Of a stretch of 64,000 nt of DNA, positions 32,401 through 36,365 are shown piece after piece. The translations under genes were made by a program, and so were the position numbers. The stretch's first letter is position 1; the number at the start of each line of letters is the position of its first letter. The stretch lies in the sequence record NZ_CP092738.1. One strand, 5' to 3'. Under the pieces are notes generated by a model that worked only from the letters and a program-made list of their open reading frames with translations, did not search any database and was not told where the DNA came from. Source of the stretch: a plasmid.

Positions 32401-35400
32401 CCGGTTTTTTAGTCACTCAGACTAGAGAGGACTTATCCAACGGAATTGTCCATTCAACTAATTATAGTTATACGAATGAAAGATATATCCAAGGAACTCG
32501 TACTATTTCTAGAAGTTTAGGGTTTGCTTCCATAAGGGAAACGGATGTAAATACGAACTTTTACAAAATCACGGATTATTTTCAAAATGACTATCGTCTA
32601 GCCGGAGTACCACAATCTACTAGAGATTATAACGCGTCCAATAACCTAACGGGTTCTACGACTCAGTCCGGTTTTAGTTTTCCAAATCCTTTCGGGACCG
32701 AAATTGCCGTTGTGGGGGTTGTGACCACCAACGATTACAGAAATGGAACGTTAGTGGAAACATCGATTCAAAATTTTACGTATGATTCTTACGGTTTTAC
32801 GACGAGTGTAATCGAGAGTTTAGGTTCCCATACGATTACAAATACTTCTCAAGTTTCTAATGACGTAACTGGTTGGAGAATGGGAAGGGTTACAAGATCC
32901 AGAAAAAATGTAGACGGCACTTGGGTTGTAGACACACAACTTGGATATACGGGAGACAATTTAACTTCTCAGACTCAGTTTCCCACAAGTGTTTCTCCTC
33001 TGACTACAACATTTGGTTATGATTCTTTTGGGAATGTAGTTTCGGTTACGGAACCTTCTGGAGGAGTTTCTTTTCTTACGTATGATCCGGTATTCAATCA
33101 TTTTCCGGTGACAAAAACAAACACACTGGGACACGTCACGACGACTAACTATGATTTTGCGACTGGATTAGAAACTTCTTCCACAGATCCCAATGGTGCG
33201 ATTACATTGACGAGTTACGACGGTTATGGAAGAAAAGCAAGCGTAACGTATCCAGGGGAAGGGACTGCAAACGAAACGTATACCTATTCCAATACGGGGG
33301 AATACAATTTAACAAATTTAAATAACAATGAGTTTGTGACAAAAAGTATCCGGGACAACGTAAGCGGGAATGTAAGTACAACTCGGATCTTTACCGATCC
33401 TTTGGGGAATACGATTCGAAGTGAAGGAAATACGGCACTGAGTGGGATCAATTCGATTGAAGACAACTACTTTGACTATACCAGAGGGGTTTTGATTCAA
33501 AAATCCAACGAATACTATACTAGCCTCACTCCACAGTTTACGACGTATCAATACAATGATCCGGACGGTGAATTGACCACAATCTTAGAACCGAGTGCAA
33601 ACGGTACGATTCAAACGAGTATTACAAAAACTGGATTTACGGAAACAAAAACTACCACCTTCCCAGACGGCCAAACTAAAACAGAAGTAGTCACGAAAAA
33701 CGAACTGGGTCAAGTGATTTTTAAAACGGTAAATGGTAGAACGATTTTAACCAACTATTCTCCGTTTGGTGGTATTTCTTCTGTGACAGATGTGGGCGGT
33801 CTTACGACCAGTTTTGTATATGATTCTAAAGGAAGAAGGGTTTCTACCCAAGACCCGAATTCTGGAACTATTTCTTATTCCTATGATTCTTTAGGACGTT
33901 TGTATTCTCAAACAGATGCTAGAAGCAAAACGATCACTTTTACCTACGATTTACTCGGAAGACCTTTGACTCAAACTACAAATGGTCCAGAAGCACCGAT
34001 TCAATTTACGTATGACGATGCTAGTGTTCCCTTTTCTAGAGGAAGGTTAACTAAAGTTACGGATGAGTCTGGAAGAACCGAGTTTCTTTTTAATCAAAAA
34101 GGAAACGAGATTCAAAAGACAAAATACGTGGATGATATAACGGCTATTTTTAAAACCGATTATGATTCTTTAAATCGACCGATTACGGAAACTCTACCAG
34201 ACGGAACTAAATTACACAATTTCTATTCGTCTAACGGAACTTTGTCGAGTATCACCATGGACACGGCGGACGGAACAAGCACCGGTCACACAGTAGTCAG
34301 CTATCAAGGTCCTTATTTAGATTCCAATGGGGTTCCGAGCTTAAGAAGAACTTCCGGTAACGGGGTTACGATGGAAATCGGTTTTGAACCACTGGACAAA
34401 AGGCCTTTGAGTATCGTTTCTAAAAAACCGGATGGAAGTGTTATCGGGAATACCGAACTTACGTATGATTCTAAAGGGTATATTACAAAAATTGAAGACA
34501 AGTTAAATCCAAACAGAACCCAGAACTTTACCTTAGACAATTTGGGAAGGGTGACGCAAGCTACGGGTAAATACGGGACTCAAAACTATACTTTTTCCGC
34601 CAATGGAAACTTAATTCAAAAAGGTGCATATACTTTAGGTTACACAGATGCAAGTCATTCTAACGCGGTGACAACGGCCACAAGTCCAAGCACAGGAGTA
34701 ATGACCTACGGCTATGACGCCAGTGGAAATATGGTTTCTCGCAATGGAGATACTTTACGCTACAATAGTTATGGTAAGTTGATCGAAATTACTCCTTATG
34801 CTACGAGTAGTTCGATCCGAAACGTATATGACTATCAAGGAAACCGTGTAAAGTCCGTATCAGACATTACTTTATTTTCAACCTATACTTTAGATGATAA
34901 CTATGAAATTGTAAGAGAGCCCGGCAAACCGGAAAGACATACTTTGTATGTTAAAGGTTTACAAGGGGACCTTGTGGCCCAGTGGACAAGAGAAGACGCG
35001 ACGTTACGGATTTCTGGAAACGAATCGGAAGAAAGTCGTTTTGTTCTTGGAGATATTTTTAGTTCTATGATCAAACCATTTTGTAAGGACGTTACTGGGG
35101 ATTGTGGCGACTACTGGAAAAACAGATTCGAATCTGAGTTTATTGGTATATTTGGATATTCTAAATTCTTTCAGTCTGGGGTTCCGACGGGTCTTTACAA
35201 GGCGTTTTATTTCTTGCTATTATTAGCAGTTATTTATTTAGTATATCCTTATTTCCTAAAGGAGAATCTACTTTTACAAAATCTTGGTTGGAAAGGGGGC
35301 GCAACCCCGGCCTTGATATTGTCTCTATTTGTAGTTACTTCCTTACCCGGTTGTGGAGTGTTACCCGGAACCGGTGGGAAAGACGGTGACCCACCTTGGA

Positions 35401-36365
35401 TATTGGCAATGGGTGCAAACGTAGCTCCAGGAGTTCCTAGTATTCAAAATCCAGGGGTAGGAATGACGGGTGGTGGAAGTGTAGGTGGAATGCCAGTAAC
35501 CGGAATGTATTTTTATCATCCCAATCATTTAGGTTCGATTACGATGATAACGGATGGTGCAGGAAATCCAGCCAGTGGACCAGAACCAGGAGTAAGTTAC
35601 GTTTCTTATGAACCGTATGGTTCTATCATACGAAACGATTCTTATGGTCCTGATATATTTCGTTACAAGTTTACGGGTCAAATCGAAGACAAAGAGACTG
35701 GTCTTTACTACTACAAATCTCGTTTTTACGAACCTACGTTAGGCCGTTTCTTGCAGGCGGATTCAGTGATTGCACCTGATTCAGTAAATGGTATGAATCG
35801 TTATATGTATGTAGATGGAAATCCTGTTAGCTATCGTGATCCTAGTGGACACATTTCCGGTCCTGATATGATGCACATGTTAAATCGTATCGTTGGTCAT
35901 GCTATGGGGAAGGATTTTAATTCTAAAGGTCTGGACAAGAAGTTGAGTACGGGTGGAGTGAAAAAAGGTTTTGATAAATATATAGGGAAGAACGGAATTT
36001 TAGGATATTTAGGTGATCATTTAGTTACTGCACCTTTAAAGAGATTGATAATCAGCACACATGATAAACGCAAAATACGAAAACAAGCTAGGGAACACGC
36101 AGTAGACGAATTAACAGCAGAGTTTATGATTTCTAGAAACTGTGGAAGTTCTATAAATACGCAAGATGCAACTCAAGAATATATTCAAAGTTATATCATG
36201 GCCCCATACCTTTCTAAATTTGCTGGAGATTCAGTATCCAGATCTTTAATGCCTGGAAGGTCAGAGCCGTATCTCTTAGGAGTATCAAAATTGTTTAAAT
36301 TTATTTCAATATTAAAAACAGATACTAGATTAGCAAAGGAGGCTTCTTGTGAAAAGACGCCATAA
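29463..36365 (+). CDS. secreted RHS/YD-repeat polymorphic toxin: SpvB-like N-domain, FG-GAP-like repeats, YD/RHS shell, RHS core and C-terminal toxin tip
   Basis: Signal peptide. SpvB-like segment (SLSLSYNSNGGNTIVGMGWSLNGLPTVSRN). At least seven D(L/V)NGDGxxDF-type repeats. Many YD repeats. RHS core ([11 protein letters not shown]...[21 protein letters not shown]...YMYVDGNPVSYRDPSGH), then a ~170-aa variable tip. Confidence 0.9.
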   Translation: MKRYVGFFFLSVSFLFLFNFSLLEGIQNTLNAVASAIAGGIPQKLPTLQAGPDGSANTQIEIELPPGKVVPSLSLSYNSNGGNTIVGMGWSLNGLPTVSRNPSLGINYNGNDSYVSSLAGELIDVSGNKTIYHSKKESYIKFEPQGTCGDGPCTWMATEKDGRRFIFGGSIDSRIPALGRTAGSIREWALSREEDSHGNGYDVNYTPVDVNSGDYYPNTITYNDRTIRFNFENRNDKIPNYSLGTMERIQKRLDTIEIRVGGNVLRTYDLDYSYGPVTGRSIFRKLKQDGNNTFGSENFADLDFNYTNHSGSFSPGHLDYQNLSSVSNMNVFIPNIAVDAMNFILNGNLPYHPSALDSNIDASLQYVVKVPVPDRNACNIGFASCLCAAIPVCWGGNQHFLEYLAGNCWSFLGWGGLGSCEVGVDSALTAWLPMDLNGDGIVDFATLNGNEANGSIHLVGHIQKIGQPAISFNGPNIPIHYNTFYQVVDLNGDGKTDFVYEDNGRLWGIYSTGGNFTSPVLFGNVNLNSANRDMHVFSPYEYKFHYGPNNTTPLASDRAAKDFFGDVNGDELVDFIHNNGGSFSIYINRETYFDNPIVIGGGGDFYLNSMIDFTGDGKADYVQLVVTYDNSTLTALQSQKTALDTLMAQYQTEHARAKAVVDQMPTPTTLSTIDDVEYQNLLAYLTANGYDSLSDSLESDGKDYPYTPSTVTGLQSILENIVSARLNFVGQQSYALNNQIAAIYAQGNLGQATYALQVRTFNLSNGTSQNVTYPLFSYVNPDKSTLSDVNGDGMLDFVSFVGTQSIVCIFMGNGFSNPIATNLNAGNGKNLLDFNFGEVNGDGLSDLVLFNKENHTIETYLSRGDGSFYYSPGFSFGGFSTQEYTESNGIERSDTYQISLQDMNLDGISDVSIAFLSLDKTWGRIYYRYNNPRNSGEDQLLNVSNGAGQTSQVQYQLKNNHSGALQTGTGNYPDVPSMTPGFLVTQTREDLSNGIVHSTNYSYTNERYIQGTRTISRSLGFASIRETDVNTNFYKITDYFQNDYRLAGVPQSTRDYNASNNLTGSTTQSGFSFPNPFGTEIAVVGVVTTNDYRNGTLVETSIQNFTYDSYGFTTSVIESLGSHTITNTSQVSNDVTGWRMGRVTRSRKNVDGTWVVDTQLGYTGDNLTSQTQFPTSVSPLTTTFGYDSFGNVVSVTEPSGGVSFLTYDPVFNHFPVTKTNTLGHVTTTNYDFATGLETSSTDPNGAITLTSYDGYGRKASVTYPGEGTANETYTYSNTGEYNLTNLNNNEFVTKSIRDNVSGNVSTTRIFTDPLGNTIRSEGNTALSGINSIEDNYFDYTRGVLIQKSNEYYTSLTPQFTTYQYNDPDGELTTILEPSANGTIQTSITKTGFTETKTTTFPDGQTKTEVVTKNELGQVIFKTVNGRTILTNYSPFGGISSVTDVGGLTTSFVYDSKGRRVSTQDPNSGTISYSYDSLGRLYSQTDARSKTITFTYDLLGRPLTQTTNGPEAPIQFTYDDASVPFSRGRLTKVTDESGRTEFLFNQKGNEIQKTKYVDDITAIFKTDYDSLNRPITETLPDGTKLHNFYSSNGTLSSITMDTADGTSTGHTVVSYQGPYLDSNGVPSLRRTSGNGVTMEIGFEPLDKRPLSIVSKKPDGSVIGNTELTYDSKGYITKIEDKLNPNRTQNFTLDNLGRVTQATGKYGTQNYTFSANGNLIQKGAYTLGYTDASHSNAVTTATSPSTGVMTYGYDASGNMVSRNGDTLRYNSYGKLIEITPYATSSSIRNVYDYQGNRVKSVSDITLFSTYTLDDNYEIVREPGKPERHTLYVKGLQGDLVAQWTREDATLRISGNESEESRFVLGDIFSSMIKPFCKDVTGDCGDYWKNRFESEFIGIFGYSKFFQSGVPTGLYKAFYFLLLLAVIYLVYPYFLKENLLLQNLGWKGGATPALILSLFVVTSLPGCGVLPGTGGKDGDPPWILAMGANVAPGVPSIQNPGVGMTGGGSVGGMPVTGMYFYHPNHLGSITMITDGAGNPASGPEPGVSYVSYEPYGSIIRNDSYGPDIFRYKFTGQIEDKETGLYYYKSRFYEPTLGRFLQADSVIAPDSVNGMNRYMYVDGNPVSYRDPSGHISGPDMMHMLNRIVGHAMGKDFNSKGLDKKLSTGGVKKGFDKYIGKNGILGYLGDHLVTAPLKRLIISTHDKRKIRKQAREHAVDELTAEFMISRNCGSSINTQDATQEYIQSYIMAPYLSKFAGDSVSRSLMPGRSEPYLLGVSKLFKFISILKTDTRLAKEASCEKTP

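Follow-up and report, generated by a model that had tools for sequence, protein, structure and literature searches.

A conserved hydrophobic hairpin with a predicted lipoprotein-type signal between the shell and the core of Leptospirales RHS toxins

A stretch of 64,000 nucleotides (nt) of plasmid DNA (sequence record NZ_CP092738.1), referred to in full length as the window and numbered from its first letter, carries a large RHS gene whose product of 2300 amino acids (aa) was analyzed in order to evaluate a hydrophobic segment inside the protein. Between the RHS shell and the Rhs core a genuine insertion is found, the strong conservation of which is confined to a single lineage. It holds two hydrophobic helices, termed TM1 and TM2, that are separated by a short basic loop and followed by a lipobox-like motif with an invariant cysteine, Cys1964. 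Judged from sequence, TM2 and this cysteine make up the full three-part build of a predicted lipoprotein signal, in which a basic n-region leads into a short h-region and this in turn into a lipobox-like x-x-[G/N/S]-C. The reading that is favoured here, at a probability of roughly 0.5, is that TM1 stops transfer and thereby lets TM2 serve as a signal for signal peptidase II within the chain, by which the shell would be split from a lipidated core and toxin module. The RHS/Tc-type toxin class is already known; what is new, as far as a limited literature search goes, is the conserved hairpin with a lipoprotein-type signal between shell and core.

The insertion between shell and core

The main gene and the parts of its product that bear on the insertion are as follows, with window coordinates, strand and the basis of each assignment.

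29463..36365, + strand: main gene, open reading frame (ORF) of 2300 aa; ORF list and translation
29463..29540, + strand: N-terminal signal-peptide-like segment MKRYVGFFFLSVSFLFLFNFSLLEGI, without Cys, a predicted Sec / signal peptidase I export signal; Kyte-Doolittle 2.14 over aa 4-26
34938-34985, + strand: last shell segment HTLYVKGLQGDLVAQW, aa 1826-1841; translation
34986..35504, + strand: insertion, 173 aa (aa 1842-2014), following the last shell strand (..LVAQW) and preceding the Rhs core; translation, alignment and RhsP comparison
35079..35126, + strand: FCKDVTGDCGDYWKNR motif (C1874, C1881), predicted periplasmic side, before TM1; alignment A1, most homologs
35190..35261, + strand: TM1, aa 1910-1933, GLYKAFYFLLLLAVIYLVYPYFLK, proposed stop-transfer anchor; hydropathy 2.15 and AlphaFold2 (AF2) helix
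35205-35255, + strand: first hydrophobic string FYFLLLLAVIYLVYPYF, aa 1915-1931; translation
35262..35300, + strand: loop, aa 1934-1946, ENLLLQNLGWKGG, predicted cytoplasmic n-region; basic charge across 46 loci
35301..35342, + strand: TM2 or h-region, aa 1947-1960, ATPALILSLFVVTS; AF2 helix of 14 residues, signal-peptide length
35310-35342, + strand: ALILSLFVVTS, aa 1950-1960; translation
35343..35354, + strand: lipobox-like L-P-G-C, aa 1961-1964, with Cys1964 as proposed lipidation and signal peptidase II site; Cys conservation
35343-35357, + strand: LPGCG, aa 1961-1965; translation
35355..35504, + strand: Gly/Pro-rich tether, aa 1965-2014 (50 aa), with invariant Trp1979 (PPW); composition and AF2 coil
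35394-35408, + strand: PWILA, aa 1978-1982, 5' limit of the DNA that orphan cassettes 3 and 4 have in common with the main gene; translation and repeat map
from 35409, + strand: MGANV; translation
35505..35852, + strand: Rhs core, aa 2015-2130, ending in DPSGH; TIGR03696
35505-35537, + strand: core start string of 11 aa, aa 2015-2025; translation
35853..36362, + strand: variable toxin tip, aa 2131-2300; homology with the second copy and the orphans stops shortly past DPSGH, at ~35840-35960

The strings quoted in a preliminary description of this DNA, made from its letters, were all recovered in the translation of 29463-36365 where that description had placed them, and the two hydrophobic helices that it proposed proved real by Kyte-Doolittle hydropathy, by AF2 and by their presence in 46/46 loci. 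The length of the insertion, which had been put at about 190 residues, was corrected to the value given above. The 19-residue Kyte-Doolittle mean exceeded 1.5 in just five stretches of the 2300 aa, one of which is the N-terminal signal while two fall within the insertion, at aa 1906-1934 (peak 2.15) and aa 1946-1970 (peak 1.94) with 12 residues between them.

Models of aa 940-2135 and of aa 1641-2135 were built with AF2, the latter giving no model of the core. In the former a confident beta-spiral shell was obtained up to about aa 1844, with a predicted local distance difference test score (pLDDT) of 80-95. Across the insertion pLDDT was 23-65. In the latter, helices were placed at aa 1862-1874 and 1881-1896, and in the two models TM1 was a helix of aa 1910-1933 or 1913-1934 that is long enough to cross a membrane. 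Residues 1961-2014 were modelled as coil with a pLDDT of 23-28 for the tether, and the Gly-rich stretch that had been noted after LPGCG accordingly corresponds to a Gly/Pro-rich tether with 15 Gly and 7 Pro in the 51 aa counted from Cys1964. In the window the signal is laid out as K..WKGG followed by TM2. The lipobox was scored against the general pattern [LVI]-[ASTVI]-[GAS]-C, with which -3 and -1 agree and Pro at -2 conflicts. A disulfide between C1874 and C1881 is possible on the predicted periplasmic side of TM1; these FCKD..DC cysteines are found in most homologs of alignment A1 and are missing in several that keep the lipobox Cys.

In the solved structure of RhsP (8h8a) about 44 residues lie between the matched stretches as compared to 215 in the window protein, which, in this one comparison, agrees with the earlier statement that canonical Rhs proteins are without the segment. 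A hydrophobic beta-strand that is an ordinary part of the shell was rejected, as homologs keep helices of transmembrane length and AF2 gave helices and not strands; homologs with an ordinary beta-strand region at this place, which the preliminary description had named as the case that would speak against it, were thus not what was found. An origin of the insertion in foreign DNA was likewise rejected, as no compositional break was seen beyond a T-rich/G-rich codon effect.

Conservation and distribution

Genomes were scanned, one per species, with patterns specific to this RHS family that are uninformative on other phyla. This resulted in 77 loci from Leptospira, Leptospiraceae or Leptospirales and from two metagenome-assembled genomes (MAGs) labelled otherwise (one Hydrotalea, one Spirochaetota). 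Layout was scored at the 46 Leptospirales loci in which the frame stays open for 150 aa or more upstream of the core. Two hydrophobic segments and a Cys were present in the same order in all 46. The first segment had a median charge-free run of 22 aa and a hydropathy of 2.0, the loop a median length of 12.5 aa and a median net charge of +2, and the second segment a median charge-free run of 18 aa and a hydropathy of 2.1. A median net charge of -1 was found over the 15 aa after the Cys, which was located 44-84 aa (median 52) before the core. The residue before the Cys (-1) was G in 20 loci, N in 9, S in 5 and A in 1 (35/46) and Q, I, H, D, T, F or L in the other 11.

Two alignments were used, A1 of 18 sequences and A4 of 34 sequences. 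The lipobox Cys was invariant in A1 (C264) and present in 34/34 sequences of A4, in one of them shifted by a single column; Trp1979 (W279 of A1) was also invariant. Pairwise identity among the 34 homologs was 31% for TM1, 18% for the loop, 40% for TM2 and 71% for the core, and mean hydropathy was 1.78 for TM1 (minimum 1.28) and 1.88 for TM2 (minimum 1.46). Hydropathy that is kept while sequence drifts is, as far as these alignments indicate, the signature of membrane segments and not of a sequence-specific fold. The build was kept in pathogenic, intermediate and saprophytic Leptospira and in uncultured Leptospiraceae. The proposal of a lipobox-like signal has been strengthened as a result, since members throughout the family keep the basic n-region and the short h-region as well as the Cys.

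An exhaustive phmmer search with the insertion alone against 1.84 billion representatives returned 19 proteins, all of this RHS family, the named sources of which were Leptospira or Leptospiraceae and one MAG fragment labelled Hydrogenophaga. Among the 19 were homologs from several lineages that are full-length, at 2200-2385 aa, and share the architecture of the window protein. The insertion is considered lineage-restricted because this search gave no other relatives outside Leptospirales, and the preliminary suggestion of lineage specificity was in this respect upheld. A word-indexed search with the insertion gave Leptospira fragments only. L. biflexa carries a homolog.

Architecture of the main RHS protein

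The main ORF is intact in the window and its product consists, in order, of the N-terminal Sec-type signal, an SpvB domain (aa 51-212, PF03534, 1.4e-14), FG-GAP repeats (FG-GAP_3, 2.1e-14), the RHS/YD shell (PF05593, 1.3e-28; TIGR01643, 1.7e-23), the insertion, the Rhs core (TIGR03696, Rhs-associated core, aa 2049-2130, 5.5e-22) and the toxin tip, the domains being from Pfam and NCBIfam scans of the main protein. N-terminal hydrophobic segments equivalent to that of the window protein were also seen in the full-length homologs P0126-P0135. Asp2100 and Asp2126 of the core are invariant (D400 and D426 in A1) and are presumably the aspartyl autoprotease pair, an assignment made from what is known of TcC/Rhs proteins. 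No family was matched by the toxin tip in the Pfam scan.

The top match of the AF2 model of aa 940-2135 to folds in the PDB was the TcdB2-TccC3 cocoon (TM-score 0.61-0.64 by query length, E 2e-37), followed by type VI secretion system (T6SS) Rhs effectors. By its domains the main protein belongs to the RHS polymorphic-toxin class, and in its modelled structure it is a fused BC cocoon of the Tc type. A prePAAR/PAAR Rhs effector of the T6SS was rejected as its identity, as neither PAAR nor VgrG families were found on the main protein in the Pfam scan and its hydrophobic helices are internal. No TcA-like gene was found in the window, to which the search was confined, and apart from the RHS genes no ORF there exceeds 479 aa. 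A query with the N-terminal 330 aa for SpvB-RHS fusions in other phyla returned one fragment only.

The third hydropathy peak of the main protein is a Cys-rich hydrophobic motif, ACNIGFASCLCAAIPVCWG, at aa 377-395 (window ~30591-30647), and similar C-x-C-rich motifs stand at the same place in the full-length homologs P0126-P0131.

Second copy, orphan cassettes and stand-alone signals

Downstream of the main gene the window holds a truncated second copy and two short orphan cassettes.

40407..43331, + strand: truncated second copy, 974 aa, with a different tip; ~99% identical to 33335-35960, from which it is offset by 7005
42195-42266, + strand: TM1 of the second copy; hairpin identical to that of the main gene
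42306-42359, + strand: TM2 and lipobox of the second copy; hairpin identical to that of the main gene
43640..43824, + strand: orphan leader element 5' of orphan 3, with an 18-aa in-frame peptide after a stop codon; translation and alignment
43840..44904, + strand: orphan cassette 3 (tether remnant, core and tip), without TM1, TM2 and Cys; translation, alignment A2 and identity profiles
45892..46076, + strand: orphan leader element 5' of orphan 4; translation and alignment
46086..47207, + strand: orphan cassette 4 (tether remnant, core and tip), without TM1, TM2 and Cys; translation, alignment A2 and identity profiles

The second copy is a duplicate of 2.6 kb of the 3' part of the main gene that starts in the middle of the shell and, unlike the short orphans, keeps the whole hairpin. 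Repeat family D1 starts at 35394, 42399, 43825 and 46077 in the repeat map, in agreement with the identity profiles and alignment A2. Orphans 3 and 4 are homologous to the main gene from 35394 (codon Pro1978, equal to 43825 and 46077) to ~35910 and ~35840, respectively, so that their junction lies 14 codons past the Cys, with 5 codons left to the ATG. The preliminary description had let both orphans begin with an ATG directly after PWILA. PWILA instead belongs to the orphans, the boundary being 15 nt 5' of the ATG, and the listed ORF of orphan 4 starts with TTG at 46086, its ATG being at 46092. As a cassette boundary PWILA holds for the orphans of the window but is not universal: orphans elsewhere start at the core, PW, the lipobox, TM2 or the loop, and the junction thus varies.

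Orphans 3 and 4 have in common a leader of about 190 nt that is unrelated to the main gene and is also kept by orphans in L. noguchii, L. alexanderi and L. alstonii. Read in the frame of the cassette, this leader gives the basic peptide (K)RRARPGxKKREEFRRGTP. The leader could be a promoter or start module of the cassette, or a recombination site. Promoter-like sites for the window orphans did not exceed chance (13 found vs 10.6 expected) and their upstream region had no match in Rfam. Independent expression of the window orphans was rejected for this window on these grounds and because of the upstream in-frame stop.

L. noguchii has the same leader followed by 135 nt (45 codons) more than the orphans of the window, the leaders of which are without a start codon and without these 45 codons encoding TM2 and lipobox. 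The L. noguchii orphan P0035 (453 aa; loci L001/L002) begins with MVLCRLKRRARPGAKKREEFRRGTPLTSNPYLLATRSVGTPALILSLFVVTSLPGCGVLPG, as also seen in P0032, P0033 and P0036, and has the N-terminal stretch MVLCRLKRRARPGAKKREEFRRGTPLTSNPYLLATRSVGTPALILSLFVVTSLPGCG. Its Met is followed by a strongly basic stretch and then by the h-region of TM2 with the lipobox, which by its sequence is a predicted ordinary N-terminal lipoprotein signal. In Leptospira sp. 96542, of the saprophyte clade, an orphan ORF (L057, 2959-3579) starts with MANRIQKQIHRYGTAILVVIFSFTNTVGC and matches the full-length gene of the same genome from the loop onwards, with the match starting exactly there. The tip of L057 lies in another frame as ORF 3570-4238, which would make it either a frameshifted pseudogene or the result of a sequencing error. 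The preliminary suggestion that the segment serves as secretion signal of orphans failed for those of the window, where homology begins 14 codons past the Cys behind the in-frame stop; it found support, as far as placement goes, in the N-terminal signals of P0035 and L057. TM2, Cys, tether, core and tip appear from these sequences to behave as one module, a statement about modularity and not about function or expression.

Proposed internal signal peptidase II signal and alternative explanations

In the proposed route the N-terminal signal would take the shell of about 1900 aa (SpvB, FG-GAP and RHS) through Sec into the periplasm until TM1 (aa 1910-1933) halts transfer. The short basic loop would stay cytoplasmic, and TM2 (aa 1947-1960) would re-enter the membrane from inside to outside and place L-P-G-Cys1964 at the periplasmic face, where Cys1964 would be diacylglyceryl-modified and LspA would cut before it. 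Two products would arise: a shell that ends in the TM1-TM2 hairpin, and a lipid-anchored module made up of the flexible tether of 50 aa, the Rhs core (plug and aspartyl autoprotease) and the toxin tip. The cassette that is swapped by recombination would roughly match the second chain, the lipoprotein product. Membrane insertion of the hairpin with this topology is highly probable, and the odds on lipidation with cleavage at Cys1964 are put at even or slightly better. The general form of the proposal, in which Leptospirales RHS toxins are polyproteins split by Lgt/LspA at an internal signal peptide and a di- or triacylated core-toxin module is freed from a membrane-anchored Tc-like cocoon, is tentative and given a little less than an even chance. 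The later steps, that is retention of the plug in the cocoon, transfer to the outer membrane by Lol and delivery of the toxin, are speculative.

A segment of 21-24 aa with a hydropathy above 2 is expected to be treated as a stop-transfer helix by the translocon, a short hydrophobic segment with a basic N-flank is expected to insert from inside to outside, and both Lgt and LspA need a Cys at the periplasmic face. As a Sec signal is present and TM1 has this length and hydropathy, it is expected to stop transfer, and since the N-terminal Sec-type signal is found in the main protein and in all full-length homologs the hairpin must meet the Sec translocon; strongly hydrophobic segments other than the hairpin were seen solely in some toxin tips. 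The hairpin is superfluous for export, for which the N-terminal signal suffices, and is the only way to orient an internal lipobox; the signal peptidase II reading is favoured on that account. It is further supported by a three-part build that is constant while sequence drifts (46/46 loci; 34 homologs), by Cys1964 that is invariant amid low identity whereas the FCKD..DC cysteines vary, by a TM1 helix of 24 residues, long enough to span the membrane, a TM2 of 14 residues of signal-peptide length and a lipoprotein-like tether thereafter, and by orphan ORFs elsewhere that carry the basic stretch, TM2 and Cys at their N-termini.

Several observations weigh on the other side. Pro at -2 of the window lipobox is outside general lipobox patterns, and the -1 residue is atypical for LspA substrates in 11/46 loci, in a few of which the Cys was possibly mispicked by the script. 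The signal is located at aa 1934-1964 of the main gene product and not N-terminally as in lipoprotein precursors, an N-terminal position being seen solely in the stand-alone orphans elsewhere. Several stand-alone orphans with the signal are decayed, P0034 and L038 by loss of the h-region and L057 by a frameshift in the tip. AF2 confidence for the hairpin is low (pLDDT 36-65) and its position relative to the cocoon is not given by the model. Even when cleaved, the shell would stay fixed to the inner membrane through TM1, a location that is hard to reconcile with an offensive toxin. Finally, a limited literature search gave no earlier case of a bacterial signal peptidase II site that is internal, which lowers the prior and raises the novelty, and an incomplete literature search gave no description of an internal lipobox or lipoprotein signal in RHS toxins.

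The atypical lipobox in the window and in 11/46 loci would be of no consequence if the hairpin were inserted but neither cut nor lipidated, with the cocoon on the periplasmic face and the Cys used for a disulfide or for helix capping. Two hydrophobic helices and a basic loop suffice for such an anchor, and further cysteines (FCKD..DC) are close by in many members. This explanation is unlikely, as it does not account for the short TM2, for the invariant Cys with a small residue or Asn before it in 35/46 loci, for the flexible tether or for orphan ORFs that start exactly with the basic stretch, TM2 and Cys; FCKD..DC is moreover absent in several members that retain the lipobox Cys. The small residues at -1 and -3 to the Cys in many members (SAG, TAG or TVG directly before it) would also suit a cut by signal peptidase I after TM2 in the same topology, by which a soluble periplasmic core and toxin fragment without lipid would be released. 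Signal peptidase I does not require a Cys at +1, yet the Cys is invariant, and L-P-G of the window is a poor A-x-A site; we consider such a cut very improbable.

A different use of the helices is suggested by mosquito SGS1, a sequence and fold relative of the window protein in which an Rhs/YD shell hides predicted transmembrane helices (PMC9935623), and the N-terminal transmembrane domains of T6SS Rhs effectors offer a second comparison. The helices might accordingly be kept inside or against the cocoon in the producer and then enter a target membrane to aid the crossing of the toxin, and some tips do hold transmembrane segments of their own (P0128). This is quite unlikely for the window protein, where the helices are upstream of core and protease site and hence are not cargo, where the translocon should trap a segment of 21 aa whose hydropathy exceeds 2, since a Sec signal is present, and where AF2 gave no packing of the hairpin on the shell (pLDDT 36-65). 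The basic loop, the invariant Cys and the stand-alone N-terminal versions are also left unexplained by it. That the segment has no function at all, being a hydrophobic loop tolerated in a decaying gene or a chance pattern, would fit the reduction of the large gene of plasmid pLiSL31 to an 847-aa C-terminal coding sequence (CDS) in an incomplete PLSDB table and the absence of the full-length window protein from the protein database. It is already contradicted by the intact ORF of the window, by homologs of 2200-2385 aa in several lineages and by a feature that is present in 46/46 loci with physicochemical and not sequence conservation, and its chances are minimal.

Immunity-type genes and plasmid context

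Each toxin tip is followed by a small ORF, and every small ORF after a tip starts with a hydrophobic stretch ending in Cys.

36349..36831, + strand: candidate immunity gene, N-terminal hydrophobic stretch and Cys (LHVIC); translation, no Pfam match
43345-43575: small ORF after a tip
44895-45383, + strand: paralog (LFLGC); translation
45455-45904, + strand: paralog (LSVSC); translation
47195-47530: small ORF after a tip
47475-47855: small ORF after a tip
48168-48596: small ORF after a tip
48630-49031: small ORF after a tip

The Cys motifs of these ORFs are LHVIC, LLFNC, LFLGC, LSVSC, WILNC and LILNC, with G, S, N or I at -1, so that N and I are among the -1 residues that occur in lipobox-like signals of this locus. 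None of the small ORFs had a Pfam match. By their sequences they are candidate lipoprotein immunity proteins, and their uniformly lipoprotein-like character is in keeping with toxins for which the periplasm is a place of passage or of action. Repeat families D3, D5 and D6 make the genes at 47195-49031 a repeated array, which is adjoined by a leucine-rich-repeat ORF with a lipoprotein-like N-terminus (LINLSC; 48910-49359, - strand). The neighbour genes that were scanned with Pfam encode HTH, TPR and Kelch proteins.

Strongly hydrophobic segments were observed inside the tips of the full-length homologs P0128 (aa 2217-2264) and P0130 (aa 2321-2335), and tips of this kind may be membrane-active toxins.

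The locus was matched by 25 Leptospira interrogans plasmid records and is syntenic with plasmid pLiSL31 (NZ_CP092675.1, L080). For the large RHS gene of the latter (5160-12444) the PLSDB gene table, which is incomplete, gives just the 847-aa C-terminal CDS. The full-length window protein had no entry in the protein database that was searched. In many L. interrogans strains the large RHS gene's N-terminal part may be disrupted or annotated as a pseudogene. An RHS-core gene of L. interrogans Hardjo, possibly a relative of the window gene, and an adjacent lipoprotein gene are reported to be expressed in culture and down 16-fold and 9-fold, respectively, in a host chamber model (PMC13066512).

Comparison with known systems

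The Tc BC cocoons (TcdB2-TccC3, YenB-YenC2) share with the window protein SpvB, an FG-GAP beta-propeller region, the RHS/YD shell and an Rhs core with two conserved Asp and DPxG followed by a variable toxin, and they gave the best AF2 fold match. Unlike these, the window protein has an N-terminal Sec signal and, within the 64-kb window, no TcA-like gene. It also differs in the 173-aa insertion with hairpin and lipobox-like Cys, the comparison across this junction being with RhsP 8h8a only, and its locus has orphan cassettes and lipoprotein-like immunity genes.

T6SS Rhs effectors with N-terminal transmembrane domains are exported through that system without Sec, and their helices are shielded by Eag chaperones. 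Such effectors, for example P. protegens RhsA (PMC8765631), resemble the window protein in having a cocoon with a cleaved and encapsulated toxin, hydrophobic helices and fragments that remain together after proteolytic splitting. Their helices are however N-terminal and accompanied by PAAR, whereas those of the window protein are between shell and core without PAAR or VgrG, and their cleavage is autoproteolytic whereas the cut proposed here would be made by a signal peptidase of the host cell. In the mosquito salivary protein SGS1 (PMC9935623) a Tc-like Rhs/YD shell and predicted transmembrane helices are likewise combined in one chain with a homologous core. The helices of SGS1 are past the aspartyl-protease site and buried as cargo, and the protein has no classical signal peptide (PMC9935623) and no lipobox-like Cys; in the window protein the helices are upstream of the protease site and a Sec signal is present.

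With lipoprotein signals and toxins such as myxobacterial SitA (PMC5562445) the segment shares the basic n-region, the short h-region, the Cys at +1 and the tether, and SitA-type toxins also have a polymorphic C-terminal toxin paired with an immunity gene (PMC5562445). These signals are N-terminal, whereas that of the window protein is found about 1950 residues in, behind a stop-transfer helix; its lipobox is degenerate (Pro at -2) and the lipidated product would carry an Rhs core. A stop-transfer helix, an internal signal peptide and a host peptidase that yields two membrane-associated chains are features of viral glycoprotein polyproteins (bunyavirus Gn/Gc, PMC5113920). In these, cleavage is of signal peptidase I type, takes place in the eukaryotic endoplasmic reticulum (ER) without lipidation and concerns unrelated proteins. 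By analogy they would nevertheless be closest in logic to the route proposed here.

Significance

Cocoons of the RHS/Tc type are armed by autoproteolysis and delivered via the T6SS, TcA or cell-wall anchoring. The Leptospirales are, to our knowledge, a lineage without a T6SS. If the favoured reading is true, the hairpin would provide a Sec/lipoprotein route to arm or deliver RHS toxins in such a lineage, with a housekeeping signal peptidase that separates the shell from the plug and toxin part and lipid-anchors the toxin module. This would constitute a natural internal signal peptidase II site and a new biogenesis logic for RHS toxins. The substrate range of Lgt/LspA would be widened to internal sites, which matters for lipoprotein prediction, as the current lipoprotein predictors that we know of look at N-termini only. 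The locus, being carried on L. interrogans plasmids, may affect competition between strains, and a lipidated product of it might act as a ligand of TLR2 or as an antigen at the surface.

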